From Candidatus Daviesbacteria bacterium (lineage in GTDB: Bacteria > Patescibacteriota > Microgenomatia > Daviesbacterales > UBA10151), in NCBI GenBank assembly GCA_030699125.1, contig JAUYKM010000009.1, positions 108,647 to 172,646 of the forward strand: a DNA stretch of 64,000 nt. Reading direction: 5' to 3'. This document shows positions 24,057-38,295 of this stretch, piece after piece (position 1 is the first letter of the stretch; each line of letters begins with the position of its first letter). A program made the position numbers and the translations under genes. The notes below the pieces were generated by a model. It made no database searches and was not told the origin of the DNA. It saw only the letters and a list, made by a program, of their open reading frames with translations.

Positions 24057-24059
24057 CCT

Positions 24060-24866
24060 ATGTTAAGCGTAATCGTTATCACCAAAAACGAAGCAGAAAG
24101 GATAAAAGTCTGTCTAGAATCCATTAAATGGGTTGATGAAATTATCATTGCTGATAATGGTTCCTCAGATAAAACTTTAGAAATTGCCAAAGAATACACC
24201 GATAAAATATTGAAATTTAATGATCTTGATTTTGCCGTATTAAGAAATAAAGCTTTTGAGCAGTCTAGAGGAGATTGGGTTCTATATGTTGATGCTGACG
24301 AGAGAGTATTAACTGATTTAAAAAATGAAATTGAGACGCTTGTATCTTTTTCAAAAGAATCAGCTTTTGCCATCTCCAGGAAAAATATTATTTTTGGGGT
24401 TGAAGTAAAATACACTCCATTCTGGCCTGATTGGGTAGTAAGACTTATAAAAAGATCTGATTTCATAGAATGGGTAGGTATGGTTCATGAGTACCCAAAA
24501 TTTAACGGGAATTTGGGTTATACCAAAAATTCCTTATTACACTTAACACATAGAGATATAGATCAGATTGTTTTAAAAAGTCTGGATTGGTCTAAGATTG
24601 ACGCCAAATTAAGATTTGATGCCAAACACCCGAAAATGAATGGTTGGAGGTTTTTAAGAATTTTTATTACTGAAATTTTCAATCAGGGTATTGCAAGAAG
24701 AGGATTTTTTAATGGGACCGCCAGTGTAATGGACTCCCTTTTGCAAGCTTTTAGCATGTACATAACTTATGTTAGATTATGGCAGCTGCAACAGCCAAAA
24801 TCCCTGGATAAAGTTTATGATGAGATAGACAAAAAACTAATCGAAGATGCTTTTCAATATAAATAG
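24060..24866 (+). CDS. GT2-family glycosyltransferase, a paralog of 23157 and 36477.
   Basis: It carries 'LSVIVITKNEAERIKVCLESIKWVDEIIIADNGSSDKTLEIAKEY' and 'WVLYVDADERV'. Confidence 0.75.
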   Translation: MLSVIVITKNEAERIKVCLESIKWVDEIIIADNGSSDKTLEIAKEYTDKILKFNDLDFAVLRNKAFEQSRGDWVLYVDADERVLTDLKNEIETLVSFSKESAFAISRKNIIFGVEVKYTPFWPDWVVRLIKRSDFIEWVGMVHEYPKFNGNLGYTKNSLLHLTHRDIDQIVLKSLDWSKIDAKLRFDAKHPKMNGWRFLRIFITEIFNQGIARRGFFNGTASVMDSLLQAFSMYITYVRLWQLQQPKSLDKVYDEIDKKLIEDAFQYK

Positions 24867-25940
24867 ATGAAAACTGCAATTTATTCCCCATATCTTGATA
24901 CTTTAGGTGGGGGAGAGAAATATATGATGACAATTGCGGAAATTCTTCTTAAAAATGGCTTCTTGGTAGATATACTGCTTGATAAACATTTGCTTGATTT
25001 TAAAGAGCTTAAGAGTAGTCTAGAAAAGAGATTTAATCTCAATTTGAGCAGTGCGAATTTTACTGGCGCCCCAATAGGTAAAGGCTCAGACTTTTTTTCA
25101 AGATTTATTTTTTTAAAAAAATATGATGTATTATTCTACTTAACTGATGGAAGTATTTTTTATCCAACTGCAAAAAAAAATATTTTGCATATTCAATCAC
25201 CCTTGATTGGCCAGCCTGCAAAAAGCACTTTAGGAAAAATTAAATTAAAGGGGTGGGATTTGATAATCTATAATTCTAAATTTACTCAAAAGTATGCAAA
25301 AGATAATTGGCCGATTAAATCGAAAGTCGTCTACCCTCCTATTGATATTAAAAAAATAGAACCTTTAAAAAAGGAGAAGTATATTTTATCAGTGGGCAGA
25401 TTCTTTGGTTTTCTAAAAGATAAAAAACACTCAATCTTAATCAAAACTTTTAGAAATCTCTATACTAAAAAGAAAATCAAGGATTGGAGTTTTTATTTGG
25501 TTGGTTCAGCAAGCAAAGGAGATACATCATATGTGAATGAACTGAAAAAATTATCGAGGGGGTTACCTATTATATTTTACCCCAATTTAAATTATGATAG
25601 ACTGATTCAAGTTTATGGTAAATCCAGTATTTACTGGCATGCTTCAGGTTATGGAGAGAATAATCCAACTAAAATGGAACATTTTGGTATATCGACAGTT
25701 GAAGCAATGGCGGCAGGGTCAGTGCCGGTGGTGATTGGAAAGGGCGGCCAAGTTGAGATTGTTGATGATGGTAAAAATGGTTTTCTTTGGAATAACCTTT
25801 CAGAATTGGAAAATAAGAGTTTGCAATTGATGGATGATGACAAACTGAGAATTAGAATGTCTCAAGAGGCTGTTAAAAAAGCTGCCGATTTCGATAAGAG
25901 TATCTTTGAAGCGAAAATTAAAGAAATTGTAAATATATGA
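24867..25940 (+). CDS. GT4-family (GT-B fold) glycosyltransferase.
   Basis: The C-terminal 'MEHFGISTVEAMAAGSVPVVIGKGGQVEIV' is the E-x7-E / GT1-4 sugar-donor binding signature. Confidence 0.7.
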   Translation: MKTAIYSPYLDTLGGGEKYMMTIAEILLKNGFLVDILLDKHLLDFKELKSSLEKRFNLNLSSANFTGAPIGKGSDFFSRFIFLKKYDVLFYLTDGSIFYPTAKKNILHIQSPLIGQPAKSTLGKIKLKGWDLIIYNSKFTQKYAKDNWPIKSKVVYPPIDIKKIEPLKKEKYILSVGRFFGFLKDKKHSILIKTFRNLYTKKKIKDWSFYLVGSASKGDTSYVNELKKLSRGLPIIFYPNLNYDRLIQVYGKSSIYWHASGYGENNPTKMEHFGISTVEAMAAGSVPVVIGKGGQVEIVDDGKNGFLWNNLSELENKSLQLMDDDKLRIRMSQEAVKKAADFDKSIFEAKIKEIVNI

Positions 25941-27061
25941 GTAAGATTTGGATTATTATAATTTTAGCAATAGCTCTAAGAATATTTTTATCATTGGCGA
26001 CATATCATCCTGATATTGCTGCGTTAGCAAATGGTGGACAATTTATCGCCAGCGGGCATATTTTGAATTTATATGATTTCAGTTCTGATACTTTAGTATT
26101 AAATTATCCCCCTTTAATCTATTGGTACTTTGGATTTTTTGATCTCTTCTTTAATGGGATTTTCGGACTTCTTAAACTCCCTTATCTTATTTTTGATCTC
26201 CTTTTAGGTTTTTTACTTTATAAAATGGTTGAGCCAAAGAAGGCATTATTGGCTTTTACAGTATGGATGTTTAATCCTATCAGTCTTTACGCCACCTATA
26301 TGATGGGGCAATTTGATATAATTCCTACTTTTTTCTCCGTGCTTTCCATTTATTTAGCAATTAAGAATAAATTAGCTTTGGCTGCATTGGCTTTAGGGGG
26401 TGGAATAGCGTTTAAACTATATCCGGTATTTTTGATCATTCCTTTAATTCTTTTAAGTAAAAGATGGTGGATGAGGGCTAAAATAATAATTCTGACGATT
26501 TTGCCTTATTTAGTTTCCGTATTGCCTTATCTTTCGTCAGTTAATTTTAGAACAAATGCTTTATTTGCCAACCAGAGTTCAAAAAGTCTATATGCCTCAA
26601 TTCCAGTTTCAGGGGGGGAATCTATACTACTTTTTCCGACAATGCTTATAGTTTTTTACCTTTTAATTTGGAATGAGGCAACTAATAAAATGAATTTATG
26701 GAAAGTTTATTTGATACCATTACTGGTATTTTTTATATTGACCCACTTCCATCCTCAGTGGTTAATTTGGGTATTCCCATATCTGATTTTGGAATTAATC
26801 AATAATGACTTCAAAAACTGGATAGCTCAATTTTTACTCTTGATAAGTTGGATTATCTCCTTATTCTTCTTTGACCCTTCTTTAACAATCGGATTATTTG
26901 CACCTTTATTCCCGTTTCTAAATAACTTACCAAGCATTTGGATAATGATGGGAATATCAATGGATTACAATTTTTCAAGGGCTATTCTTCAGACAGTTTT
27001 TGCGGCATCTGCACTTCTTTTGATTGTTAGAAATTTTCCCAAAAATGCTTTTCAAAAATAA
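25937..27061 (+). CDS. Polytopic membrane protein, possibly a GT87/DUF2029-like GT-C mannosyltransferase.
   Basis: It has about 10 TM helices and the N-terminal 'LATYHPDIAALANGG...LNYPPLIYWYFGFF'. Its 5' end overlaps the upstream gene by 4 nt. Confidence 0.4.
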   Translation: MSKIWIIIILAIALRIFLSLATYHPDIAALANGGQFIASGHILNLYDFSSDTLVLNYPPLIYWYFGFFDLFFNGIFGLLKLPYLIFDLLLGFLLYKMVEPKKALLAFTVWMFNPISLYATYMMGQFDIIPTFFSVLSIYLAIKNKLALAALALGGGIAFKLYPVFLIIPLILLSKRWWMRAKIIILTILPYLVSVLPYLSSVNFRTNALFANQSSKSLYASIPVSGGESILLFPTMLIVFYLLIWNEATNKMNLWKVYLIPLLVFFILTHFHPQWLIWVFPYLILELINNDFKNWIAQFLLLISWIISLFFFDPSLTIGLFAPLFPFLNNLPSIWIMMGISMDYNFSRAILQTVFAASALLLIVRNFPKNAFQK

Positions 27062-28538
27062 TTTCCTAATAAGTAAAACTTTTTTAGTAGTATTATTTTA
27101 TATAGTAAGTTGGTTTCTCTTAAGTTTTAAAATTTTGGATGTTCCTCCGGGAATAAATGGTGATGAGGCCATCATTGGTTACAATGCCGCTTTAATTACG
27201 AAGAACGGTTATGATTCAACTGGAAAATTCTTACCTCTTTTTACCAGAGTACCTAACTCAAATGATTGGAAGCAGCCCGTTACTCTCTATGTAACTGTAC
27301 TGGCATTTAAACTATTTGGACCATCATTTCTTGTCCTAAGAAGTGTCAGTGTGGCGGTGGCGCTTTTAGGAGGAATAATTATATTTCTTTTGATTAAAAA
27401 AATCCTGGGATTTAGAATTGCAATCGGGGGGCTGATATTGTTTATATCAACTCCAATCATCTTTATTCAATCGCACTTGGCTTTGGAAAATATAGCTCCA
27501 GTTCCCTTCGTAGCTTTCTGGTTAATAATGCTGGCAAGTTATACAGTAAAGAGAAATAAAATCTTTTTGTCAGTTGCAGGAATATCTTTAGGAGTCAGTA
27601 TCTTCTCTTACTTGGGGATGAGAATGATAACTCCGATACTGATATTGATAAGCTTGGGCTACATATTTTACTTAAATCGTCAAAAACGTGCCCTAATTTT
27701 TAATCATTTAACTTGGTTTCTTTCCGGTATTATCCCATTTTCTATTTTGCTAATATTTTCAAGATCTTTTTATCCGGGAGCAATATTGGGGTTATACAGA
27801 GCAGTTGAAATCCAGGACTATCAATCATTTTTCTTACCATTCTTATCATCATTTGATTTATCGTTTCTCTATATCTTAGGCGATTCAACACCTTATCACT
27901 CTACCGGAAGAGGAGGAATGTTTCTTCTAGCAAGTTTGCCGCTATTTTTTCTTGGTATTATAAGTACCATAAAAAAAAGGAATTCCTTTTCAGTTCTTTG
28001 CCTGATCACCTTTTTATTAATCCCTATTCTTTTTGGCTTGGGATCTACCATACATAGAGCCAGTAGACTTTTGGCGCTAGTCCCACCCTATATTATTATT
28101 TCCTGTTTTGGCTTTCAATTAATTGATGAAATTAAGCAAAAGGCAATAAAACTCTTAGTTCTAACTGCAATTTTATTTTTGATTTTGTTAAATTTCATTG
28201 ATTTCACTAAGGATTACTGGTATCAATATCCCCAAAGGGTGAGGGCGCAATTTGCAAAGCCCATTCATATTGTTTTTGATAGAGCTCAACATCTGCTAAA
28301 GGAAAATCAATCTGAAATATATATCCAGAAAGATTTTTTTTCGGAAAGTGATTTTACTGTCAATTTTTTTGAACAAGCCTATTTTCCAGATGGATCATCT
28401 AAATGGTCGACAAATCAAACCTTACCCTCCAAGGCGTTACTTATTGCTGATCCTAATGTTATTCCCCAAAGCTTGAAACAAAATTTAGTGAACTATAGTT
28501 CAGGACTAGAAGGTTTTAGCATTTTTGTTGCAAAATAA
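27045..28538 (+). CDS. GT39/PMT_2-like membrane glycosyltransferase, 1 of 6 consecutive.
   Basis: It carries 'PPGINGDEAIIGYNAALITKNGYDSTGKFLPLF'. The 27045 ATG is preferred over the 27024 ATG because it shortens the overlap with the upstream gene. Confidence 0.65.
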   Translation: MLFKNNFLISKTFLVVLFYIVSWFLLSFKILDVPPGINGDEAIIGYNAALITKNGYDSTGKFLPLFTRVPNSNDWKQPVTLYVTVLAFKLFGPSFLVLRSVSVAVALLGGIIIFLLIKKILGFRIAIGGLILFISTPIIFIQSHLALENIAPVPFVAFWLIMLASYTVKRNKIFLSVAGISLGVSIFSYLGMRMITPILILISLGYIFYLNRQKRALIFNHLTWFLSGIIPFSILLIFSRSFYPGAILGLYRAVEIQDYQSFFLPFLSSFDLSFLYILGDSTPYHSTGRGGMFLLASLPLFFLGIISTIKKRNSFSVLCLITFLLIPILFGLGSTIHRASRLLALVPPYIIISCFGFQLIDEIKQKAIKLLVLTAILFLILLNFIDFTKDYWYQYPQRVRAQFAKPIHIVFDRAQHLLKENQSEIYIQKDFFSESDFTVNFFEQAYFPDGSSKWSTNQTLPSKALLIADPNVIPQSLKQNLVNYSSGLEGFSIFVAK

Positions 28539-28546
28539 TCATCATA

Positions 28547-30172
28547 ATGAAACAAATAAAATCCATTGTCGGAAATAATTTGTTACTGATTACTATACTG
28601 CTGGCTTTAATTATCAGACTCATAAATATTGATTTTCCCAAATTTAGCGCAGAGGAAGCACAAGTAGCATCCCGTGCCAATTTTCTAATTAGTCACGGAA
28701 CAGATGAATTGGGTAGAAAACTTCCCTTTATTTTCAATTCCTCCTATGATTATCAATTGCCACTCACCTCATATATAACAGCATTTGGAGTACTGATATT
28801 TTCTAATAATGACTTAGGGGTAAGGCTACCGTTTATTTTAATTGGTATATTAATAGTTATATTAATTTATTTTATTTCGAAAATCTTATTTAAAGATAAG
28901 AAATTGGCCTATTTTTCAGCAATAATTGCAGTCGCTTCCCCTGGATTAGTATTCTTTTCTAAAATTCCCAATGAGTATATTGTATTAATAGTTCTTATGC
29001 TGATATTAATTTTGCTACTTCTGCAAGAGAAGATAAATAAATTTTTTATCATTACAGCCGTAATCTTACTGCTTATGACATCTAAGTTGGCATGGTTTAT
29101 CACCGTGCCCATTATTTTATTAAGCTTTTTCTTAAGAAATGATCTTAGTAGAGGAGAAAAGATTAACCTAATTGTTTTAGGCAGTATCCCAAATATATTG
29201 ATGGTTTATATTTTTCTTAATATCCCACAGGGAGGGAGGAGTTTAATAGAAAATAATTTTTCTATCCTTAATGATCTTAGCATCAAAAACGGGATAGATA
29301 GATTAAGGGGTCAGCAAATTGATGGTTGGCCTAATCTTTTAGATAGAATTTTACTAAATAAATCTTTTTTAATTATCGCCTCCTTTTTTCACTGGTTGTC
29401 TTATCTTCAGCCATCGTCTTTATTCGGACAGATAGATGCAAGTGGTAAATTTGGCTTTCTCAACCAGGGAGGATTGTCTAAAATCATTATCATCCCCCTT
29501 CTTATTGGATTAGTTCATTTAATAAAAGAGAAAAACAAAAAGGTTCTTACATTTTTTTTATTTGCCATACTTTTATCAATTCCTGGTGCACTTATTTATC
29601 CGAAAATTGAAATTGGTGTGTTAATTATCATTTTGCCCTTTTTGATATTGATTTCTGCATTCGGGATGTCAAAACTTAAGTCTGCATTTGTGAACATAGT
29701 AATAGTATTCATAGTTTTTGAGGCAATTCTTAATTCTTTTTTTATCTCTTCTAATGTAAAAATTTCCAATACTGATCGTCCTTTCTGGATAAAGCAAATA
29801 GTTAATGAAGCATATGATTACTCAAAAGTAGCTCAAGTTTTTTTCTCGGATAAAATAGCCCCGGATCCGGCTCCCTTCATTTTTTGGTATACATCCGCAG
29901 CTCCGCCTATTTCTTCTAAAGATAACTTCCCATATAAAATAATTCAAAGAGACATTGGAGCAATAAAAATTATCAATTCCGATAGAATTTCTTATCAATG
30001 CAAAGGCGACAAAATAAATTATTTTTTTCTTAACGAAGACGAATCAAAAACTTTCGAGAAAAATGCCACAACTTTTCAAAATTTTGATACTAAATTTGAG
30101 AGGATTTATGCTGATAATTTTAATCAGGATAGAGTTTATCTATATAAATCGTCAATATGCTTGAAACAATGA
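28547..30172 (+). CDS. GT39/PMT_2-like membrane glycosyltransferase variant, 2 of 6. Its loop motif is E-E instead of D-E.
   Basis: It carries 'FPKFSAEEAQVASRANFLISHGTDELGRKLPFIF' and has the same topology as its neighbours. Confidence 0.55.
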   Translation: MKQIKSIVGNNLLLITILLALIIRLINIDFPKFSAEEAQVASRANFLISHGTDELGRKLPFIFNSSYDYQLPLTSYITAFGVLIFSNNDLGVRLPFILIGILIVILIYFISKILFKDKKLAYFSAIIAVASPGLVFFSKIPNEYIVLIVLMLILILLLLQEKINKFFIITAVILLLMTSKLAWFITVPIILLSFFLRNDLSRGEKINLIVLGSIPNILMVYIFLNIPQGGRSLIENNFSILNDLSIKNGIDRLRGQQIDGWPNLLDRILLNKSFLIIASFFHWLSYLQPSSLFGQIDASGKFGFLNQGGLSKIIIIPLLIGLVHLIKEKNKKVLTFFLFAILLSIPGALIYPKIEIGVLIIILPFLILISAFGMSKLKSAFVNIVIVFIVFEAILNSFFISSNVKISNTDRPFWIKQIVNEAYDYSKVAQVFFSDKIAPDPAPFIFWYTSAAPPISSKDNFPYKIIQRDIGAIKIINSDRISYQCKGDKINYFFLNEDESKTFEKNATTFQNFDTKFERIYADNFNQDRVYLYKSSICLKQ

Positions 30173-31788
30173 ATAAACAAATTTTAATTCTTTTATTAAT
30201 AATAATTTTTGGTTCGTTTCTAAGGTTTTATAGACTAGATAATATACCAGTACAACTTAATCATGATGAGATTAGCCAATTGTATGATCTTAAATCAATT
30301 GTTGGAACGGGAAAAGATATCTATGGCAACTCTTATCCTTTGGCATTTCCATCAACAGGTGATTATAAACCTGGCCACTATATTTATATAAGTATGATTC
30401 CGTATCTTTTATTTGGGGATCAGGAAGTAACAATTAGAATTGCTGCAGCTTTTTTCGGAATCCTGACTATTTTGGGAACATTTTTATTTGTAAAAATTCT
30501 TACCAAAAATTGGCATGTAGCACTACTGGCGTCATTTTTAATAGCTATTACTCCTTCTGAGATTTTCTATTCCAGGAAAAGTTTCGAAAGTATTATTGGA
30601 GTATGTTTAAATCTTTTTGGTCTGTTCTATTTAATAAAAGGCCTAACTCTTAGAGGACTGAATGCGTTTATATATATAGGTATTTTGATAATGACTTTAG
30701 CGATGTATGTATACACCTCTTATGTAATAACCGTTCCGCTAACATTACTTCTGATATTTTTTATTTATTGGAAGAAGGCAAATCTTAATAGAAATAGTTT
30801 TTTTAGGATAGTTACCCTTTGGCTTATTTGTATTTTTCCGCTTATTTTTATTACTTTTACCAACAATGATTTGCGATTCCGCGCATCTTCTGTTTTTCTA
30901 ACGCAAGATCCTAATTTAGGTAAATTAATCGGTTTAACGCATAACCCATTAAAAGCATACTTTGACCTAGTGTTTGTTAAATATCTAAATCAATTTAATC
31001 CCGTTTTCCTTTTTGTAAATGGCTTGTCGCTTACTAATCAAACTATGTTGGATTCTGGCCCATTAATGATTGTTCAATTTCCGCTTATTATCATGAGTTT
31101 TATTTTTCTATTTTTGTATAAAGAATTCCTATTTCAAGGAAAATTTTTATTTTTTCTAATCTTAATTGCTATGATACCTTCATCTATAACTTTTGATGAT
31201 TTCAGTCCCCATAGGTCTGTCTTTGCATTTACCCTCTTTAGTATCATTTCAGCTTTTGGGTTATATTGGCTGATTCATGTAATTATTACATCCGAATTGA
31301 ATAAACTGTTTCAGTCAGTATTATTAGGAATTATTATGCTTATTTTAACCCTAAATTTAACCTACTTCATAAGAATATACGCATTTAGTTATCCTTATGA
31401 AAAATCTCAATATATAGAGTACCCTTTTAAGGAGGTATCTCAATATATCTGGTCACAATATGGTAATTTTGACAATATTATTTTCGACCCCAAATTTGGG
31501 ACGATTCAACCTTTTGTAGGAGTAGGAGCACAATATTATATAGCTTACTATGGAAATTTAGAGCCTATCTTTGTTCAATCTGAGTATTTAGATCTAAAAG
31601 ATAGACAGATGAGTATAGGAAAGATTAAAATCCGTCAAATTTATTGGCCAAATGATAAAAATTTGAAAAATATTTTAATAATAGGGAGTAAATGGACTAT
31701 CCCAATTAATGAACTTGATAAGGCTAAAATAATACATGAGTTCGCCTTATATGATGGTCAGCCCGCCCTTTATGCTATAAAGTTGTAG
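30157..31788 (+). CDS. GT39/PMT_2-like membrane glycosyltransferase, 3 of 6.
   Basis: It carries 'IPVQLNHDEISQLYDLKSIVGTGKDIYGNSYPLAF'. The C-terminal soluble domain contains 'NIIFDPKFGTIQPF'. Confidence 0.65.
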   Translation: MLETMNKQILILLLIIIFGSFLRFYRLDNIPVQLNHDEISQLYDLKSIVGTGKDIYGNSYPLAFPSTGDYKPGHYIYISMIPYLLFGDQEVTIRIAAAFFGILTILGTFLFVKILTKNWHVALLASFLIAITPSEIFYSRKSFESIIGVCLNLFGLFYLIKGLTLRGLNAFIYIGILIMTLAMYVYTSYVITVPLTLLLIFFIYWKKANLNRNSFFRIVTLWLICIFPLIFITFTNNDLRFRASSVFLTQDPNLGKLIGLTHNPLKAYFDLVFVKYLNQFNPVFLFVNGLSLTNQTMLDSGPLMIVQFPLIIMSFIFLFLYKEFLFQGKFLFFLILIAMIPSSITFDDFSPHRSVFAFTLFSIISAFGLYWLIHVIITSELNKLFQSVLLGIIMLILTLNLTYFIRIYAFSYPYEKSQYIEYPFKEVSQYIWSQYGNFDNIIFDPKFGTIQPFVGVGAQYYIAYYGNLEPIFVQSEYLDLKDRQMSIGKIKIRQIYWPNDKNLKNILIIGSKWTIPINELDKAKIIHEFALYDGQPALYAIKL

Positions 31789-31824
31789 AAATTAGCTTTT
31801 ATCTTTCCAAATTGTTAACATTAA

Positions 31825-33483
31825 TTGGTGAATAGAAAATTTCTCATTTTCTTTCTTGGGCTAATTTTACTATTTTCTTTTATCTTACGGTTTTATAAAG
31901 TAAACGAAATCCCACCATCTTTAAACTGGGATGAGGTATCCATTGCCTATAATGCTTACTCTATTTTAAAAACCGGCAAAGATGAGTGGGGACAATTTTT
32001 CCCCGTACATTTTAAGGCTTACGGAGAATATAAACTTCCAGTCCAAGTTTACGGTTCAATTCCAGGAATTACCATTTTTGGATTAAATGAGTTAGGGGTA
32101 AGGATTACGCCGGTTGTTTATGGAACTTTGACAGTATTGATAATGTTTTTTTTGGGACAAGTCTTATTTAGAAATAATCTAGTTGGTCTTTTGTCATCAT
32201 TTCTTCTGGCCATCTCTCCTTGGCATATCCAGTTAACTCGTGCCTCTTACGAATCGTCATTTGCTCTTTTTTGGGTAATTCTCGGGACGTGGTTACTTAT
32301 TAAAGGATTTGAGGATAGAAAGTGGTTTATATGGTCCATGATTCCTTTTGCAGCTTCAGTTTTTACATATAACAGTGCCAGGATTTTTACTCCTTTATTT
32401 TTGATGGCTGTTGCCATTATTTATAGACATCATTTGATAAAAGTAAAAAGAACTGTCTTAATCTCTATGATAGTCTTTACCATACTGATATTACCGTTAA
32501 CCCCATTTCTATTTGGTGGGGAAAGGAGCGCCAGATATAAATTGGTTAGCATAACAGATGATCCGGGACTTATTCCCAGAATTGAAGAAAGAAGAAATAA
32601 TTCAATTCTTCCCTCTCCTCTGACTAGATTAATCCATAACAGAATAACCTATGTGTCATTTTATTTCACCAGAAATTATTTAGCTCATTTTACCCCGGAC
32701 TTTTTATTCATTAATGGCGCACCTCATAAACAGCATCATGTACAGGGAATGGGGCAGCTATATTGGTTCCAGGCGCCATTTTTATTTCTAGGATTCTTTC
32801 TTTTATTCAAAAAGAAAAATGAATTTAGATGGTTGATAATGAGTTGGATTCTTCTTATTTATATACCTGTGTCCGTGACTAATGATAGTATTCCTCACGC
32901 CTTGCGGTCTGCCATAGCTACACCAGTCTATCAACTTCTTACGGCTTTTGGCATATATCAAGCCTATCTATTGATAAAAAATAAAAAGATGCTGTGGCAA
33001 TTTTTATTATGGGGGATAGTGGTAACAATAGGATTATGGCAGTTTATAAGTTACTTAATAAATTACTACACCATTTATCCCAAAAATTATTCCAGAGATT
33101 GGCAGTATGGTTATAAGCAAGTGCTGGAATATATAAGGGTACACAAAGATGAATATGACGAGATTGTTTTTACCAGACATTTCGGAGAACCGCATATGTT
33201 TACTTTATTCTACCTAAATTATGATCCAGCGAAATACCAAACTGATCCGAATTTAGTCAGATTCGAAACCTATGATTGGGTGAGAGTATTAAGATTTGAT
33301 AAATACTACTTCCCTGATTTAGGAGATAGAGAAACTCAATTTGCAGATATTGTTAGGGATAATCCGGGAGAGAAATTGTTATTTATTGGTAGAGAAGGAG
33401 ATTTTCCAAAAGAAATGCCACGACTTTTGTCCATAGACTTTTTAAATGGTGATAATGCCTTTGATGTTGTAGAGGTCAGATGA
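31825..33483 (+). CDS. GT39/PMT_2-like membrane glycosyltransferase, 4 of 6.
   Basis: It carries 'PPSLNWDEVSIAYNAYSILKTGKDEWGQFFPVHFKAYGEYKLPV', 'SPWHIQLTR' and 'DSIPHALRSA'. The C-terminal domain contains 'FTLFYLNYDPAKYQ'. Confidence 0.7.
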   Translation: MVNRKFLIFFLGLILLFSFILRFYKVNEIPPSLNWDEVSIAYNAYSILKTGKDEWGQFFPVHFKAYGEYKLPVQVYGSIPGITIFGLNELGVRITPVVYGTLTVLIMFFLGQVLFRNNLVGLLSSFLLAISPWHIQLTRASYESSFALFWVILGTWLLIKGFEDRKWFIWSMIPFAASVFTYNSARIFTPLFLMAVAIIYRHHLIKVKRTVLISMIVFTILILPLTPFLFGGERSARYKLVSITDDPGLIPRIEERRNNSILPSPLTRLIHNRITYVSFYFTRNYLAHFTPDFLFINGAPHKQHHVQGMGQLYWFQAPFLFLGFFLLFKKKNEFRWLIMSWILLIYIPVSVTNDSIPHALRSAIATPVYQLLTAFGIYQAYLLIKNKKMLWQFLLWGIVVTIGLWQFISYLINYYTIYPKNYSRDWQYGYKQVLEYIRVHKDEYDEIVFTRHFGEPHMFTLFYLNYDPAKYQTDPNLVRFETYDWVRVLRFDKYYFPDLGDRETQFADIVRDNPGEKLLFIGREGDFPKEMPRLLSIDFLNGDNAFDVVEVR

Positions 33484-34877
33484 AGAATTCAACAATTCTA
33501 TTAACCATAATTTGTGTTCTTTTTCTCATTACACATCTATATAAAATTGGTGAAATTCCACCTTCAGTTTATTGGGATGAGGCATCAATTGGCTATAATG
33601 CATATTCCATTGCCCAGACTGGAAAAGATGAATGGGGGGATTTTTTGCCGATACACTTTAGGGCATTTGGAGAATTTAAATTACCTGTATATATTTATTC
33701 TGTAGTGGCTTTCGTACAACTTTTCGGACTAAATGAGTTTTCAGTTAGAATTCCTGCAGTTTTATTTTCATTGGGAAGTATAATTTTTACTTTTTTATTG
33801 GCAAAGAAATTGTCAGGAAATGAAACTGTTGGATTATTTGGTGCTTTCCTCCTTGCCATTTCACCCTGGTTTTTTATTTTTTCAAGAATAGGGTTTGAGG
33901 TAACTGCAGGACTGATGTTTTATCTTTTGGGAATCGTACTCTTTTTAAAAGCCGAAAATAAAGGTAAGTTTATCCTTTTTTCCATAATTAGTTTTATTCT
34001 AAGTGCTTATAGTTACAATAGTTTTAGAATTATCTCACCATTAACGCTCTTGGCACTGATTATTTTTGAGTACGGTAACTTGAAGGAAGTTTCAAGCAAG
34101 AACAAAGTTTATTTTCTTACATCAATTATCCTTTTATTTTTAGCTGCTATACCAATTCTCAGATTATATGTTTTTGATGCCGGTATTGCTAGATTCCAAA
34201 CGGTTGGAGAGATGTCTACCTTAACTATAGTAAATAATTATCTCTCGCATTTTGATCCGATTTTTTTATTTATCCAGGGAGATAATAATTTAAGGCATCA
34301 GCAAGCTGGTTTCGGACAACTTTATTTTCCGGAACTTGCACCTATTATAATAGGATTAATTTATATGTTTAGGAGTAAATTTAAATATAGGTGGATTCTC
34401 CTAATAATAATTTTTATTTCACCCATTCCTGCTGCAATTACCAAGGAGTCACCACATGCTTTGAGGTCTTTATCCATGGTGCCATTCATTCATATTACTT
34501 CAGCGATGGGAGTTTTTTATTTGACACAATTCTTCAGGCAAAAAATGCTGATAAGTCTAACCTTAGTTACTGTATTTTTAATCTTTTTTGTTAATTACTT
34601 TATTAATTTCATAACTATTTATCCGAAAGAGTCTGCAGGCTGGTGGCAATTTAATTATAAAAAAATATTTACAGATTCAAAACTTCAATCTGAAAATGAA
34701 AACAAAATTTATATATCTGACAAGGAAGGACAACCATATATTTTTGCTCTATTTTATTTAAAGTATAATCCGGAAAAATTCAGAGAAGAAGTTGAAAGAA
34801 ACAGTGTCGATATGTGGGGTTTCTCAACTGTTAAAAGTTTTTCTAATTTTGAGTTTGGGGATTATAATGAAAAATAA
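33480..34877 (+). CDS. GT39/PMT_2-like membrane glycosyltransferase, 5 of 6.
   Basis: It carries 'PPSVYWDEASIGYNAYSIAQTGKDEWGDFLPIHFRAFGEFKLPV', 'SPWFFIFSR' and 'ESPHALRSL'. It is about 50% identical to gene 31825 in the N-terminal half. Confidence 0.7.
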   Translation: MKNSTILLTIICVLFLITHLYKIGEIPPSVYWDEASIGYNAYSIAQTGKDEWGDFLPIHFRAFGEFKLPVYIYSVVAFVQLFGLNEFSVRIPAVLFSLGSIIFTFLLAKKLSGNETVGLFGAFLLAISPWFFIFSRIGFEVTAGLMFYLLGIVLFLKAENKGKFILFSIISFILSAYSYNSFRIISPLTLLALIIFEYGNLKEVSSKNKVYFLTSIILLFLAAIPILRLYVFDAGIARFQTVGEMSTLTIVNNYLSHFDPIFLFIQGDNNLRHQQAGFGQLYFPELAPIIIGLIYMFRSKFKYRWILLIIIFISPIPAAITKESPHALRSLSMVPFIHITSAMGVFYLTQFFRQKMLISLTLVTVFLIFFVNYFINFITIYPKESAGWWQFNYKKIFTDSKLQSENENKIYISDKEGQPYIFALFYLKYNPEKFREEVERNSVDMWGFSTVKSFSNFEFGDYNEK

Positions 34878-36462
34878 CTTAATTAAGATATTATTAATCC
34901 TGATATTGATTCTTTCCGCCGTTGTTCGGATTTATCGTTTAGATAGTGTTCCTCCCTCAATCTCTTGGGATGAGGCAGCAGTAGGTTACAATGCCTGGAC
35001 GATCAGTGAGTATGGCAAAGATGAGTATGGGAAAAGCTTTCCCCTAACATTTAAATCTTTTGGAGATGATAAACATTCTGTCCACATTTACTTAACTGCC
35101 ATTTCTGTAAAACTTTTCGGTTTATCTGAATTTACTACTAGATTGCCAGCTGCCCTTTTTGGAATTTTCAATATCTTCTTAATATTTTATTTAGGCAAAT
35201 TGCTTTTTAGAAATGAGTGGATAGGAATTATGGCAGCAGTATTTCTTGCCATTTCACCATACCATATCCAATTTTCCAGATTTAATCATGAATTAAACTT
35301 TGCATTATTTTTCTTTTTATTGGGATTAATAACATTTATTAGAGGATTAGAAGGAAGAAAATGGTTACTTACAGCCTCATTTATTAGTTTTGGATTAGAT
35401 TTGTTAAGTTATCATAGTGCTAAGGTAGTTGTTATTCCCTTCATATTAATCTTAATATTGATGTATTTTCAAAACCTTTGGAAAATGAGGATTTATTTTT
35501 TCTTGGGTATAGTTTTTCTACTATTTTTTTTGGGGCTAATTTTTTTAAATCCTACTTTGTTGGGTATAGCAAGGGCAAAACAAACTGCTCTTCCTCAGTC
35601 AGATATTAATGATACCAAGCTTTATAAATTTTTTCAAAATCAATACTTAGGTTATTCAGAAAGATTAGTTCAAAATTACCTGTCTCATTTTAATCCGGAA
35701 TATTTATTTATTAAGGGTGGAGAAAATACTAAATTTTCTACTCACCAAGTTGGGGAATTTTATAAGATTGACGCCCTTTTCTTATTAGTAGGTTTTTTAG
35801 CTTTAGTATTAAAAAAAACAAGGACATCAATAATTTTGCTTTCTTGGGCTTTACTAGCACCGATTCCTTCTAGTTTAACTAACGAAGCTCCTCATGCAGG
35901 GAGAGCACTATATATGATGGGAAGTTGGCATCTAGTCTCAGTATATGGTTTTTATATAATTTTTACCAAATTAAAAGGTAGAAAATTTATGCATAGCTTA
36001 ATAGCAGTAACCTTTTTTATTTTGTTTATTTCATTTATAACTCATCTAAAATATTATTTTGAAAAATATCCTAGGGAAAATGCAATCGACTGGCAATATG
36101 GAATGAAACAAGTAGTAGAGTTTATTAAGACTAGTCCTCAATATAATTATATATACATGACAGATAGTAGATTTCAACCTTACATCTTCTTTTTGTATTA
36201 CCTGAAAACTCCGCTACCTGAATATTTATTGAGAGTCGTTTATAATAATTCGGAAAGCAAAAGTTATAGTATGGTATCTTATTTTGATAAATATTTTTTT
36301 GGAGGATGGGATACAGCAGAAAGTGTGCCACAAAAGGACGTATTATATATCTTAACTCCTTATGAGTACGATGGTTTAAAATATAAAAGTAAATTTGATA
36401 TAAGAAAGAAAGTTCAATATCCTAACGGAATTGACGCTTTCTTTATAGTGAGTGGAAACTAG
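34867..36462 (+). CDS. GT39/PMT_2-like membrane glycosyltransferase, 6 of 6.
   Basis: It carries 'PPSISWDEAAVGYNAWTISEYGKDEYGKSFPLTF', 'SPYHIQFSR' and 'EAPHAGRAL'. The start is placed at the ATG at 34867 (MKNNLIK), not at 34792, because the 34792 ATG would overlap the upstream gene by 86 nt. Confidence 0.65.
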   Translation: MKNNLIKILLILILILSAVVRIYRLDSVPPSISWDEAAVGYNAWTISEYGKDEYGKSFPLTFKSFGDDKHSVHIYLTAISVKLFGLSEFTTRLPAALFGIFNIFLIFYLGKLLFRNEWIGIMAAVFLAISPYHIQFSRFNHELNFALFFFLLGLITFIRGLEGRKWLLTASFISFGLDLLSYHSAKVVVIPFILILILMYFQNLWKMRIYFFLGIVFLLFFLGLIFLNPTLLGIARAKQTALPQSDINDTKLYKFFQNQYLGYSERLVQNYLSHFNPEYLFIKGGENTKFSTHQVGEFYKIDALFLLVGFLALVLKKTRTSIILLSWALLAPIPSSLTNEAPHAGRALYMMGSWHLVSVYGFYIIFTKLKGRKFMHSLIAVTFFILFISFITHLKYYFEKYPRENAIDWQYGMKQVVEFIKTSPQYNYIYMTDSRFQPYIFFLYYLKTPLPEYLLRVVYNNSESKSYSMVSYFDKYFFGGWDTAESVPQKDVLYILTPYEYDGLKYKSKFDIRKKVQYPNGIDAFFIVSGN

Positions 36463-36476
36463 AAAAAAGTTAAATT

Positions 36477-37232
36477 ATGAATAGACTTTCAGTAGTTTTG
36501 GCAACCTATAACGAGGAAAAAAACTTAGAAGATTGTTTAAGGAGTATTTGTGATATTGCTTGGGAAATTGTTGTAGTAGATGGAGCATCTCAAGATAAAA
36601 CTGTTGCTATTGCCAAAAAGTATGGAGCAAAGGTATCCATAACTGATAATCCGCAAAACTTTCATATTAATAAAAATAAAGCCATAGATAAAGCAGTCGG
36701 AGATTGGATATTTCAGCTAGATGCTGATGAAAGAGTGACAGAAGAGTTAAAAAGAGAGATAAGGCAAGCAATTGGTAAAAATGAGCAAGTAAACGGTTAT
36801 TGGATACCACGAAAAAACTTTTTTTTGGGAAGATTTTTAAAAAAAGGTGGTCAATATCCTGACTATACTTTAAGGTTATATAAAAAGGGTAAAGGGAAAC
36901 TTCCTGCGAAAGATGTGCATGAGCAAGCCGAGGTAGAAGGTAAGGTAGGTTATTTAAAAAATGATTTATTACATATTCGAGATAAAAACTTCTCGACTTA
37001 TATGGACGGATTTAATAGATATACTGACTTAATGGCAAATGATTTGAAAAAGAGAAAAGATGGAAAGTTGTTGTCCTTTTTTAATTTTGTTTTTTTAAAG
37101 CCTGCGATCTGGTTTATGAAAGCATACATTAGACACAAAGGTTTTGAAGATGGATTTCCTGGTTTTATTTTTGCTCTTTTTTCTTCGTTAAGATTTCCTG
37201 TATCATATTTTAAATATCTAACCAATGATTAA
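36477..37232 (+). CDS. GT2-family glycosyltransferase (GT-A, DXD).
   Basis: It carries 'LSVVLATYNEEKNLEDCLRSI...IVVVDGASQDKTVAIAKKYGAKV' and 'WIFQLDADERV'. It is a paralog of genes 23157 and 24060. Confidence 0.75.
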   Translation: MNRLSVVLATYNEEKNLEDCLRSICDIAWEIVVVDGASQDKTVAIAKKYGAKVSITDNPQNFHINKNKAIDKAVGDWIFQLDADERVTEELKREIRQAIGKNEQVNGYWIPRKNFFLGRFLKKGGQYPDYTLRLYKKGKGKLPAKDVHEQAEVEGKVGYLKNDLLHIRDKNFSTYMDGFNRYTDLMANDLKKRKDGKLLSFFNFVFLKPAIWFMKAYIRHKGFEDGFPGFIFALFSSLRFPVSYFKYLTND

Positions 37233-38295
37233 AGTAGCCATAAGTAAGTACCCGCTAATAAGTGCCCATAAAAAAAGAGGTATTGGTTACTATACGCAAA
37301 ATCTTATAGATCAGCTAAAAAAAGATAAATCTATTTCAATTCAGGAATTTGTCAATCAATCTGAGGTAAAAGATACAGATGTAATTCATTATCCCTGGTT
37401 TGATCTGTATTCCCATACCTTACCAATAAAAAATAAATTTCCGACTGTCGTGACAATTCATGATGTGATCCCACTTATTTTTCGGAAGAATTACCCAGTC
37501 GGTATTAAGGGTAAGTTTAATTTCTTTTTGCAAAAAATTTCGCTAAATAATTGTCGGGCCATCATCACTGATTCTGAAGCTTCTAAAAAAGATATCAAGA
37601 AATACCTAAAGATTGAAGACGAAAAAATATTTATTGTATATTTGGCAGTAGATGAATCATTTAAAAAAATAAATGAATCGCAATTAATTCGTTTAAGAAG
37701 AAAATATCATTTACCACAGAGATTTATCCTGTACTCGGGCGATGCCAATTGGACTAAGAACCTCCCTTTTTTGGTAAAAGGCTTTAAAAATTTAGTAAAT
37801 ATAAAAGGGTATGATGATATTAAATTAGTGCTAATTTCAGATGTTTTTTTAAAAAAATTAGATAACATAGATCACCCGGAACTTAATAGTTTAAAAGACA
37901 CTTTAAAATTTATTGAAACAAATTTGGAAGGAAAAGTAATTACACCAGGATTTGTGGAAAAGGATGAATTGGTGGCTTTTTACAATCTGGCAACAGTTTA
38001 TGTTCAGCCTTCTCTTTACGAGGGTTTTGGTTTACCCATACTACAGGCTTTAGCTTGCGGAACTCCGACAGTCTCTTCCAGTGCCGGATCTTTGCCGGAA
38101 GTAGGGGGAAAAACTGCTCTGTATTTTGATCCGAATAATTTAGAACAGTTTAGTTCACTACTAAAAGAAACAATTAATGATGAGTCGTTAAGAAGTAGAT
38201 TAACCATCTTGGGTTTGGAGCAGGCTAAAAAATTTTCCTGGGAAAAAGTAGCGGCGGAAACAAAAAATGTTTATCTAAAAGCTTTAAGGAAGTAG
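37225..38295 (+). CDS. GT4-family (GT-B) glycosyltransferase.
   Basis: It carries 'YEGFGLPILQALACGTPTVSSSAGSLPEV', the canonical GT4 E-x7-E motif. Confidence 0.75.
   Translation: MIKVAISKYPLISAHKKRGIGYYTQNLIDQLKKDKSISIQEFVNQSEVKDTDVIHYPWFDLYSHTLPIKNKFPTVVTIHDVIPLIFRKNYPVGIKGKFNFFLQKISLNNCRAIITDSEASKKDIKKYLKIEDEKIFIVYLAVDESFKKINESQLIRLRRKYHLPQRFILYSGDANWTKNLPFLVKGFKNLVNIKGYDDIKLVLISDVFLKKLDNIDHPELNSLKDTLKFIETNLEGKVITPGFVEKDELVAFYNLATVYVQPSLYEGFGLPILQALACGTPTVSSSAGSLPEVGGKTALYFDPNNLEQFSSLLKETINDESLRSRLTILGLEQAKKFSWEKVAAETKNVYLKALRK

Follow-up and report, generated by a model that had tools for sequence, protein, structure and literature searches.

ArnT, the lipid A 4-amino-4-deoxy-L-arabinose transferase of family GT83 (PDB 5ezm/5f15), combines a multi-TM GT-C core of 13 helices with a C-terminal extracytoplasmic alpha/beta domain, and the PMT/POMT and bacterial Pmt enzymes of GT39 carry an Asp-Glu pair in loop 1. 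In Pmt1, a structural salt bridge between the second Glu and an Arg positions the Asp, and in GT-C enzymes a lysine like ArnT Lys85 and an arginine preceding TM10 act as lipid-phosphate ligands (PMC7801869). Changing D55 of C. metallidurans ArnT to Glu or Asn abolishes function, and S. coelicolor Pmt is inactive as D113E and active as D113N, which its authors say argues against Asp as the base; Asp-Glu mutants of M. tuberculosis Pmt are cited in the same paper as having residual activity (PMC8698208). The best precedent for Asp/Glu interchange comes from the DPY19 C-mannosyltransferases, a GT-C family whose loop-1 catalytic carboxylate varies between Glu and Asp from member to member: CeDPY19 with the E71D mutation retains ~80% activity, and in human DPY19L4 Asp is the native residue at the site (PMC10154233). 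The ER-lumenal ALG3/ALG9/ALG12/ALG6/ALG8/ALG10 series consists of several distinct GT-C enzymes, each of which adds a single polyprenyl-phosphate-borne sugar at the far face of the membrane. PIGU of the GPI transamidase and archaeal Agl23 are non-catalytic or non-transferase proteins with a GT-C/PMT_2-like fold; PIGU has lost the loop-1 acidic motif (SSW for DxD) and Agl23 has flippase-type activity.

Family Assignment of the Array

The window, the whole 64,000-nt stretch analyzed here, comes from a Candidatus Daviesbacteria MAG (Table 1; genes are named by their first nucleotide). An initial annotation described six head-to-tail ArnT/PMT-like genes of 465–556 aa, and all six are indeed plus-strand ORFs above the PMT_2 (PF13231) gathering score of 26.1 bits (range 26.7–51.8), 27045 and 30157 narrowly so. 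This pattern of matches is not chance. The PF02366 PMT threshold of 22.7 bits is barely passed, and only by the last three genes (25.6–29.2 bits). The accompanying GT39/PMT_2-like label stands for PMT_2 but not at finer resolution: the curated Pmt model NCBIfam NF058602 is unmatched (best 16.7 bits, in one protein only, against a cutoff of 800), the curated ArnT equivalog NF009784 matches none of nine paralogs (E. coli ArnT control, 805.6 bits), and no array protein has a Pfam match to the MIR or PMT_4TMC domains. Because the curated ArnT and Pmt models are unmatched, GT39 is a superfamily-level NCBI name only. Against the Agl23 model TIGR03663 all paralogs score 19.5–53.2 bits, below the cutoff of 126.25, and 28547 is not singled out. 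The fold is GT-C, about equally distant in structure from ALG12, Pmt4, and ArnT, and the AF2 model of the 28547 product (pLDDT 90.6) has this fold.

The array proteins share ArnT's overall layout, a multi-TM GT-C core with an extracytoplasmic alpha/beta domain at its C-terminal end, but identity is only 10–14%, ~11 helices are predicted, and the arn operon context is absent. CPR bacteria, the group to which this organism belongs, are not known to have lipid A. The loop-1 Asp-Glu is shared with PMT and Pmt, in contrast to the MIR and PMT_4TMC domains, in place of which the array proteins have the C-terminal soluble domain. Identity to the ALG series is ~11%, and the present system is bacterial and operon-encoded.

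The further copies reported at 1058, 16259, and 19050 were recovered by PMT_2. ORF 17881-19053 has no Pfam match and aligns to the GT-C core only (hhalign probability 83.6% against profile A4 and 96% against A3); since TM1/EL1 and the C-terminal domain are both missing from it, its description as truncated is fair. The initial annotation did not mention several other GT-C-type genes in the window: PTPS_related at 4267 and 7631, a sub-threshold PMT_2 at 2565, YfhO at 20671 (minus strand), a PIG-M/GT87-like gene at 25937, and a PIG-V-like gene at 38304. A C-terminal motif said to be shared by several members is matched strictly by 31825 (FTLFYLNYDPAKY, 33199-33237) and 33480 (FALFYLKYNPEKF, 34743-34781) only, and loosely by 19050 and 30157; with two strict matches, "several" is generous.

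Table 1. Genes and site residues of the GT-C locus, in window coordinates
Feature	Position	Strand	Details
Further PMT_2 paralog, ADE	1058..2590	+	PMT_2 51.5 bits
Further paralog, GDE	16259..17869	+	PMT_2 53.6 bits
Truncated GT-C core without loop 1	17881..19053	+	hhalign only
Further paralog, IDE	19050..20669	+	PMT_2 38.5 bits
Upstream operon genes	23157..27061	+	GT2 23157-24056; GT2 24060-24866; GT4 24867-25940; PIG-M/GT87-like GT-C 25937-27061
Paralog 1	27045..28538	+	GT-C; 497 aa from ATG, 504 aa from TTG at 27024; PMT_2 29.3 bits
Paralog 2, E-E copy	28547..30172	+	GT-C, 541 aa; 'DYQLP' lineage, remodelled loop-1/EL5 site; PMT_2 43.0 bits
Glu36-Glu37 of 28547 product	28652..28657	+	GAG 28652-28654, GAA 28655-28657; position of ArnT D55/E56
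Gln70 in 'DYQLP'	28754..28756	+	Position of ArnT Lys85 (lipid-phosphate ligand)
Glu143 in 'SKxPNE'	28973..28975	+	Aligned with ArnT Asp158; retained, 80/104 orthologues
Lys180 in 'TSK'	29084..29086	+	Aligned with ArnT Lys203; Tyr in sibling paralogs
TM9-TM10 loop, aa 344-362	29576..29632	+	Without 'PHALR' His/Arg motif of sibling lineages
Paralog 3	30157..31788	+	GT-C, 543 aa, HDE; PMT_2 26.7 bits
Paralog 4	31825..33483	+	GT-C, 552 aa, WDE; PMT_2 34.7, PMT 29.2 bits
Paralog 5	33480..34877	+	GT-C, 465 aa, WDE; PMT_2 40.6, PMT 27.8 bits
Paralog 6	34867..36462	+	GT-C, WDE; 531 aa from ATG, 556 aa from TTG at 34792; PMT_2 51.8, PMT 25.6 bits
Downstream operon genes, first two	36477..38295	+	GT2 36477-37232; GT4 37225-38295
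Downstream operon genes, last two	38304..40699	+	PIG-V-like GT-C 38304-39449; MOP/Wzx-type flippase 39437-40699

Gene Order and Operon Context

The array sits inside a GT2/GT4/flippase operon. Up to 15 related genomes carry 1:1 orthologues of its genes in identical order, the orthologue of paralog 1 being missing at 4 of the 15 loci; the flanking operon genes are also conserved at these loci, the upstream ones in unchanged order. The six genes are anciently diverged, individually conserved paralogs rather than recent duplicates, and in Daviesbacteria they make up the fixed core of an operon for a cell-surface glycan. Paralog gain and loss had been proposed as a signature of glycan variability; this holds only for accessory genes, which are inserted around the core, whereas the core paralogs themselves are fixed, ancient, and 1:1. 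By analogy with the ALG series, six different paralogs conserved in this way would fit an assembly line rather than redundancy. The window also encodes polyprenyl-phosphate-sugar-synthase-like GT2s and MOP flippases.

The 28547 and 30157 ORFs overlap by 16 nt. At every complete related locus the 30157 orthologue directly follows that of 28547, and in all loci with an uninterrupted 28547-lineage ORF the two overlap by 4–19 nt. Since PMTs function as dimers, a paralog pair would be plausible here.

The Loop-1 Acidic Pair

In array order the loop-1 pairs read GDE, AEE, HDE, WDE, WDE, and WDE, and DE or EE lies 8–12 residues past TM1 in all nine full-length paralogs. The codons bear out the five DE pairs and single E-E of the initial annotation, Asp-Glu being encoded by GATGAG in all five copies that have it and the E-E of 28547 by GAG GAA. 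The pair aligns with ArnT D55/E56, 'PDE(G/T)RYAE', both in hhalign (profile A3 against E. coli ArnT) and in a MAFFT --add alignment including both ArnTs, as the initial annotation had supposed; residue equivalences to ArnT rest on alignments at 10–14% identity. Five canonical paralogs share Asp-Glu after TM1, a loop-1 Lys, a Glu preceding TM4, and His/Arg ahead of TM10, exemplified in paralog 1 by GDE (27162-27167), the Lys of 'DWKQP', the Glu of 'LALEN', and 'HRxSR'. At the ArnT positions D55/K85/D158/K203/Y345 (C. metallidurans numbering), alignments at this same 10–14% identity give D, K, E, Y, and R in the canonical five and D/E, Q, E, K, and no conserved residue in the E-E lineage. On these alignments neither set is identical to that of ArnT: the canonical five differ in their Tyr at the K203 position and their Arg in place of Tyr345, and the E-E lineage in its Gln at the K85 position; the E-E lineage shares with ArnT the Lys at K203 and an Arg at +3 ('DEARIA' versus 'DEGRYAE').

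Asp-Glu is without exception in 71 orthologues of the other five array genes (11/11, 15/15, 15/15, 15/15, and 15/15) and in 8/8 orthologues of 16259, and paralog 1, which served as a deeper control of comparable divergence, has the D, E, K, and both R residues in 120/120 orthologues. In contrast, position 36 of the 28547 lineage is D9/E4/G1/A1 in the same related genomes (Fisher p = 6e-6; the Ala is at locus L015), D34/E16/N2/S1/G1 in a wider orthologue set, and D60/E34/N3/S1/G1/Q1 in the largest (n = 100), where an acid is found in 94 and Glu37 is kept in 97. A sister clade has Q/N/K at the Asp position in 12 of 17 members, with the second Glu invariant. Rather than being a one-off oddity, E-E recurs and is inherited in a lineage that has ceased to require the usual catalytic Asp. 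The initial annotation saw a singular substitution that might mark altered specificity, a view abandoned here: position 36 changes at least 12 times, Asp and Glu alternating, on an NJ tree of 28547 orthologues, and the closest relative is likewise E-E. We infer that E-E itself is an inherited, near-neutral variant of its lineage and does not signal a changed specificity in this genome.

A Remodelled Site in the 28547 Lineage

Judged from the alignments, the unusual features belong to the whole 28547 lineage, namely Gln at the Lys85 position and no His/Arg before TM10. The Gln is found in 83 of 102 orthologues, against Lys in 120/120 of the control lineage, and other paralog lineages carry Lys or Arg there; HMMER aligns paralog K70 with ArnT K85, and hhalign of A4 against A3 pairs the sibling Lys with the Gln. 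The absence of 'PHALR' is seen in the per-lineage consensus and conservation map, and the same hhalign comparison pairs PHALR with unconserved columns. Lys180 is present in 58/58 and 100/103 members of a smaller and a larger orthologue set, and like the second Glu and the ArnT-D158-like Glu it is a fixed residue of this lineage.

This lineage is the fastest evolving of the six (mean pairwise identity 42.9%, versus 69.2% for the most conserved, paralog 4). Its 58 orthologues at ~44% identity retain 16 invariant and ~60 near-invariant columns, mostly in extracytoplasmic loops, and the C-terminal domain has two near-invariant Cys. The lineage is under purifying selection, separate, and as old as its siblings, with its active-site face remodelled. 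An NCBI Daviesbacteria MAG protein matches the 28547 product at 100% identity, and an identical protein occurs in an independent read-set assembly. Of 15 related genomes, 14 carry the gene intact, and dozens of metagenomic orthologues are intact as well, so the gene is not a pseudogene, in agreement with the initial annotation; the L002 orthologue has an in-frame stop within the conserved 'PYKFRQ' motif.

Proposed Function and Alternatives

By analogy with ArnT, PMT, and ALG enzymes, the five canonical proteins probably each transfer a single sugar, carried on polyprenyl phosphate, to an acceptor located outside the membrane, with donors that would be supplied by the neighboring GT2/GT4 enzymes and flippases. 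The 28547 product is most likely an active transferase, predicted to have a remodelled site tolerating either carboxylate. We give even credence to the fuller proposal that it is still a glycosyltransferase using Glu36 for the usual Asp in a looser site, with E-E inherited and its siblings canonical transferases. Glu36 would take over from the Asp in a less tightly constrained geometry, with the DPY19 family as the parallel, and the enzyme would use a donor or acceptor other than those of the five siblings. Against this, the D-to-E change kills the two closest studied enzymes, S. coelicolor Pmt and C. metallidurans ArnT, whereas D and E alternate freely in the 28547 lineage, and it has lost two residues that elsewhere among GT-C enzymes bind the lipid phosphate. 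The ~6% N/S/G/Q, the L015 Ala, and the Q/N/K of the sister clade suggest that the carboxylate may be non-catalytic in this clade.

A minor but real possibility is that the 28547 lineage comprises non-catalytic GT-C-fold proteins, acting as a scaffold or substrate-presenting partner of the translationally coupled 30157 or as a lipid-linked-sugar flippase, with position 36 free to drift for want of a nucleophile to activate. Relaxation confined to this lineage, with the second Glu invariant even in the sister clade, would fit, as would conservation of Glu37 and Arg93, the equivalents of the Pmt1 salt-bridge pair, and loss of the Lys85 equivalent and pre-TM10 Arg. The invariable adjacency and overlap with 30157 point the same way, but gene overlap indicates co-expression and is no proof of a complex. 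Also counting against this reading, position 36 is still acidic in 94% of orthologues, the strongly conserved extracytoplasmic loops and ArnT-D158/K203-like pair resemble a working ligand site, the clade-specific EL4 basic residues R231, R254, K272, and K312 could substitute for the lost phosphate ligands, and all paralogs match the Agl23 model weakly, well under cutoff (19-53 vs 126 bits). It is also conceivable, but quite unlikely, that 28547 is an active transferase in which position 36 need only be small and polar for positioning, another residue, for example Glu37 or Glu143 with Lys180, having taken over catalysis. Glu37 (97/100), Glu143 (80/104), and Lys180 (100/103) set against D60/E34/other 6 at position 36 are in keeping with this, as are the active D113N Pmt of S. 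coelicolor and the residual activity cited for M. tuberculosis Pmt; the same data, however, also fit the other two readings. Decay of the E-E copy into a pseudogene, or an assembly or sequencing error behind E-E, has a negligible probability despite the L002 stop and the rapid evolution of the lineage: the ORF is full-length, dense in invariant motifs, and intact in nearly all related genomes, the independent assembly yields the identical protein, and E-E is common to the closest relative and 34 other orthologues, which together effectively refute it.

It is possible, though somewhat unlikely, that the entire 'DYQLP' clade, comprising the E-E protein, its orthologues, and the Q/N/K-Glu sister group, gave up glycosyl transfer and serves as a dedicated partner of 30157, either a substrate-presenting scaffold or a lipid-linked-sugar translocator. 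If so, this clade would be a prokaryotic counterpart of PIGU or Agl23 within a multi-enzyme extracytoplasmic glycan assembly line.

The GT-C Array and Its Genomic Context

The forward strand of the window, which is about 32% G+C, carries nearly all genes between positions 75 and 52109. ORF calls, Pfam gathering scores, and an alignment of the window's paralogs confirm the six head-to-tail PMT_2 genes of the initial annotation, one of them with Glu-Glu (E-E) for the loop-1 Asp-Glu pair. The six ORFs stand as annotated except at their starts, the likely ones being the ATGs at 27045 and 34867; genes and their orthologous lineages are named here by start position. Neighboring ORFs overlap by 16, 4 (ATGA), or 11 nt or are otherwise separated by gaps of 8–36 nt, and the six form a single operon. 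The E-E codons are GAG GAA (28652–28657), and the Asp-Glu pairs are all encoded by GATGAG.

Features of the window and of related loci (L-numbers) discussed in the text
Feature	Coordinates	Strand	Support or size	Loop-1 residues
GT-C ORF 1	27024/27045–28538	+	PMT_2 above gathering score	GDE
GT-C ORF 2 (E-E)	28547–30172	+	PMT_2 above gathering score	AEE
GT-C ORF 3	30157–31788	+	PMT_2 above gathering score	HDE
GT-C ORF 4	31825–33483	+	PMT_2 above gathering score, PF02366	WDE
GT-C ORF 5	33480–34877	+	PMT_2 above gathering score, PF02366	WDE
GT-C ORF 6	34792/34867–36462	+	PMT_2 above gathering score, PF02366	WDE
Further paralog	1058 (start)		Alignment of the window's paralogs	ADE
Further paralog	16259 (start)		Alignment of the window's paralogs	GDE
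Further paralog	19050 (start)		Alignment of the window's paralogs	IDE
Truncated GT-C-like ORF	17881–19053		390 aa	
Large ORF	10846–14265		1139 aa	
Large ORF	14262–16262		666 aa	
Antisense ORF	23885–24466	-	193 aa	
Orthologue of 28547 with in-frame stop	L002:11100–11620			DD
Short orthologue of 34867	L007:18691–19887		398 aa	
19050-like paralog	L018:11707–13356			NE
PTPS_related–methyltransferase fusion	L018:5303–7618		771 aa	

The extra copies previously noted at 1058, 16259, and 19050 are present, and nine PMT_2 genes in the window score above threshold. Other GT-C-type genes comprise two PTPS_related, one YfhO, one PIG-M/GT87-like, and one PIG-V-like gene, bringing the membrane genes of GT-C type with Pfam support to at least 14 in the 64 kb (1058–39449; whole island 75–52839). 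Alongside them are six GT2 genes (three resembling polyprenyl-phosphate-sugar synthases), three GT4 genes, two MOP flippases, one UDP-glucose dehydrogenase, and two epimerases/dehydratases. By gene content, the window is a glycosylation island, and the GT-C, GT2, GT4, flippase, and sugar-nucleotide genes together are a very large portion of a small CPR genome.

The ORF at 17881 is indeed truncated: it aligns with just the central part of the GT-C core and lacks TM1, loop 1, the acidic pair, and the C-terminal domain. It is nearer to the profile of the E-E lineage (hhalign probability 96%) than to canonical paralogs (84%), has relatives in loci L006 and L007, and may represent a truncated form of GT-C-like protein that has been conserved. 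Two large ORFs with several hydrophobic segments had no Pfam or NCBIfam matches; the shorter is kept in related loci at 38–63% identity. An ORF antisense to two GT2 genes is probably spurious, and its apparent conservation in locus L010 is expected from the conserved GT2 genes on the opposite strand.

Fold and Family

For the E-E protein, AF2 yields a confident model (pLDDT 90.6) with about 11 predicted membrane helices, loop-1 juxtamembrane helices, and a long loop following TM7; the alpha/beta domain at its C terminus carries two Cys that are near-invariant. Foldseek ranked ArnT first for this model, and identity to every solved structure is 10–14%. The C-terminal motif attributed earlier to several members matches only two proteins in its strict form. 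The GT39 label likewise was not upheld: the curated NCBIfam Pmt model scored 16.7 bits against a cutoff of 800, the ArnT model gave no match (E. coli ArnT control, 805 bits), and Agl23 (TIGR03663) scored 19–53 bits against a cutoff of 126. As no curated NCBIfam model was reached, GT39 or GT83 membership is not demonstrable, and profile matches place the array proteins in GT-C and Pfam PMT_2.

Conservation of the Array across Related Loci

Scanning one genome per species identified 15 related loci in Daviesbacteria and Patescibacteria MAGs, with the recurring order GT2, GT2, GT4, PIG-M-like, 27045, 28547, 30157, 31825, 33480, 34867, GT2, GT4, PIG-V-like, flippase. Five of the six array orthologues occur in every complete related locus, that of 27045 being absent from four loci. 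Mean pairwise identities, computed over the same 13 genomes for all six lineages, are 69% (31825), 56% (33480), 55% (34867), 51% (30157), 47% (27045), and 43% (28547), making the E-E lineage the fastest evolving by this measure. The six genes are old paralogs with 1:1 orthologues rather than recent duplicates, and the array consists of a fixed core plus accessory genes.

Additional GT-C genes cluster at two insertion hot spots. Before the 28547 orthologue (L005–L008, L010, and L011), a small ORF of about 225 aa lies beside an extra GT-C of about 545 aa, which in L007 follows the 31825 orthologue instead. Between the 30157 and 31825 orthologues (L005, L006, L008, L010, and L011) lies a Dol-P-hexose-transferase-like GT2, joined in three of these loci by an opposite-strand PTPS_related GT-C. 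Presence or absence of individual paralogs in orthologous loci had been put forward as a signature of glycan variability; within the core only 27045 varies in this way, and the accessory insertions are a candidate source of strain-specific glycan decoration.

The 30157 orthologue is directly 3' of the E-E-lineage gene in every complete related locus, even where the upstream neighbor differs, and the two ORFs overlap by 4–19 nt wherever the E-E-lineage ORF is intact (30157–30172 in the window). This constant adjacency and overlap suggests that the two genes are translationally coupled and may work as a functional pair.

The short 34867 orthologue in L007 lacks the C-terminal domain and may reflect truncation or frameshift. 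Records for L002, L003, L008–L010, and L012–L014 are titled "uncultured Gammaproteobacteria bacterium", yet these MAGs have a Daviesbacteria-type operon with full synteny and 35–70% protein identity, and the labels look wrong.

Relaxation of the Loop-1 Aspartate in One Lineage

Because orthologues are 35–70% identical at the protein level, synonymous sites are saturated, and position 36, the first residue of the pair, was analyzed by counting states per site, by tree parsimony, and with matched-genome controls in place of dN/dS. Asp-Glu is invariant in the related genomes for 27045 (11/11), for 30157, 31825, 33480, and 34867 (15/15 each), and for 16259 (8/8), whereas the 28547 orthologues of the same genomes have DE in eight cases, EE in four, and DD, GE, and AE in one each (Fisher's exact test, p = 6e-6). 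Position 36 is D34, E16, N2, S1, and G1 in 54 database orthologues of 28547, and D60, E34, N3, S1, G1, and Q1 in a larger set gathered by exhaustive profile search, in which 94% keep an acid. At least 12 changes at this position are required by parsimony on an NJ tree. Several other residues are widely retained in this larger set (Glu37 97/100, Arg39 92/100, Asp53 102/102, Lys180 100/103, Arg231 104/106). In a control set of similar divergence, 120 orthologues of 27045 (mean identity 50% versus 44% in the E-E lineage), no exception occurs at the D, the E, the loop-1 K, or either Arg (120/120 at each). Among array orthologues, relaxation of the first acidic residue is confined to the 28547 lineage.

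The closest relative of the source genome, with flanking genes 81–95% identical, also has E-E ("SAEEARIASRAN"), so the state is inherited in the source genome, and we infer that it is near-neutral. An extreme acceleration of the E-E gene had been suspected, its best database relative being 45% identical versus 86% for a neighboring gene. This was rejected because the contig of the 86% relative ends 81 codons into the E-E orthologue; the fragment, also E-E, is about 80% identical over 44 aligned residues.

A sister group ranks one step below the orthologues: proteins of about 550–570 aa from Patescibacteria metagenomes, in which the pair reads xQE, xNE, xKE, or xEE (position 36: Q7, N3, D3, K2, E2). 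The second Glu is kept in 17/17, and "DE(T/L)GR" and "DYQLP" are fully conserved. One member belongs to a further array, which counts at least seven PMT_2 genes, and here too the following GT-C gene overlaps it. The 19050-like paralog of that Patescibacteria array (L018) has Asn-Glu rather than Asp-Glu ("SMNEAAIAYNSYS"), indicating that the hallmark Asp is not absolute elsewhere in these bacteria and has been lost sporadically in other lineages. A fusion of a PTPS_related (GT-C-like) membrane domain with a class I methyltransferase domain adjoins the same array.

Other Active-Site Positions

Residues were numbered by aligning E. coli ArnT to the 5ezm chain (SEQRES index minus 3). The loop-1 pair corresponds to that of ArnT, as had been assumed: hhalign of the 28547-lineage profile sets [D/E]-E-A-R opposite D-E-T-R of E. 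coli ArnT, and MAFFT --add keeps the DE-to-DE register for all paralogs, with the Arg of "PHALR" opposite Y345. In HMMER profile alignments, K85 faces the loop-1 Lys of the paralogs, D158 the Glu of "SRxxxE", and K203 the Tyr of "SYNS". Profile searches of the PDB with two paralog profiles, including that of the canonical siblings, match ArnT only from the Lys85 region on, leaving the acidic pair outside the alignment, and single-sequence phmmer of the E-E protein against the PDB gave no relevant match. An hhalign register of the canonical sibling profile against E. coli ArnT (2.6% probability) was rejected, with the motif two residues out of register.

The 28547 lineage was compared with three sibling lineages by hhalign (99.95% probability, 492 columns) and per-lineage consensus strings. 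Opposite K85 it carries Gln ("DYQLP"; 83/102), and its TM9–TM10 loop shows no conserved residue where the siblings have PH(A)LR. Two features resemble ArnT, a Lys at the K203 position and an Arg three residues past the Glu. Residue roles follow secondary accounts (PMC8698208 and PMC7801869). ArnT K85 contacts the lipid-carrier phosphate, as does an Arg just before TM10 in STT3, PglB, AglB, and TMTC, whose counterpart in ArnT is Y345; D158 and K203 are salt-bridged and contact substrates, both acceptor and sugar being named (PMC7801869). In Pmt1, the catalytic Asp is positioned by an Arg to which the second Glu is salt-bridged (PMC7801869). Glu37 and the invariant Arg93 of the E-E lineage are spaced like Pmt1 E78 and R138, which by analogy would fit retention of a structural Glu37 with catalytic position 36 free to vary.

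Possible Functions

Six distinct GT-C proteins make up the conserved operon, five with an invariant canonical residue set and one with a variable first carboxylate and other substitutions, its extracytoplasmic loops still strongly conserved; what goes beyond sequence conservation is inference. The five canonical enzymes would each draw on a polyprenyl-phosphate sugar to glycosylate an extracytoplasmic acceptor, with neighboring GT2 and flippase genes supplying donors, in a putative stepwise assembly line like the ALG3/9/12/6/8/10 or mycobacterial Aft/Emb enzymes.

The preferred reading, at about even odds, is that the 28547 lineage is an active transferase with a remodeled site that takes either Asp or Glu. 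It is favored by the acid kept in 94% of orthologues, the dense conservation around the site, and the precedent of DPY19, in which E71D keeps about 80% activity and one human paralog uses Asp (PMC10154233). It is weakened by the existence of non-acidic variants and by the inactivating effect of D-to-E in S. coelicolor Pmt and in C. metallidurans ArnT (PMC8698208). A non-catalytic partner or flippase-like protein, for which PIGU with SSW in place of DxD (PMC12653191) and Agl23 (PMC11182771) are respective precedents, seems somewhat unlikely, and an active enzyme using a different catalytic residue is improbable. That the E-E gene is a pseudogene or sequencing error is scarcely credible. The protein is 100% identical to one encoded on a 360-kb contig of a Candidatus Daviesbacteria MAG (named "glycosyltransferase family 39 protein" by NCBI) and recurs in an independent read-set assembly. 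Breakage in other assemblies, raised initially as a concern, was seen only in L002, where an in-frame stop falls inside the conserved "PYKFRQ" and the frame then runs to the normal end (a possible pseudogene or sequencing error); all other 28547 orthologues are intact.

Significance

GT-C enzymes make N-glycans, O-mannose, lipid A modifications, and mycobacterial walls, and to our knowledge the loop-1 Asp is regarded as their universal hallmark. As annotation, tandem PMT_2 genes labeled "GT39" in a CPR MAG are nothing unusual. We found no published account of such GT-C arrays in Daviesbacteria or CPR bacteria in the searchable literature, which does not prove their absence. Within that literature, and in the initial annotation, three points are not described: that six sibling GT-C genes are conserved strictly 1:1, that one lineage has relaxed the hallmark Asp and lost two lipid-phosphate ligands, and that a sister clade seemingly lacks the Asp.

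The array is a natural internal control, with six sibling GT-C genes in one operon across many genomes, five strictly Asp-Glu and one drifting under selection, and the 28547 lineage would allow a direct test of what the hallmark residue and the two lipid-phosphate ligands do. The finding is of moderate interest to GT-C enzymologists and CPR cell-surface researchers. With its fixed core and variable accessory genes, the array indicates that tiny-genome CPR bacteria put much into extracytoplasmic glycan assembly, and it bears on how CPR episymbionts build and vary their surface.
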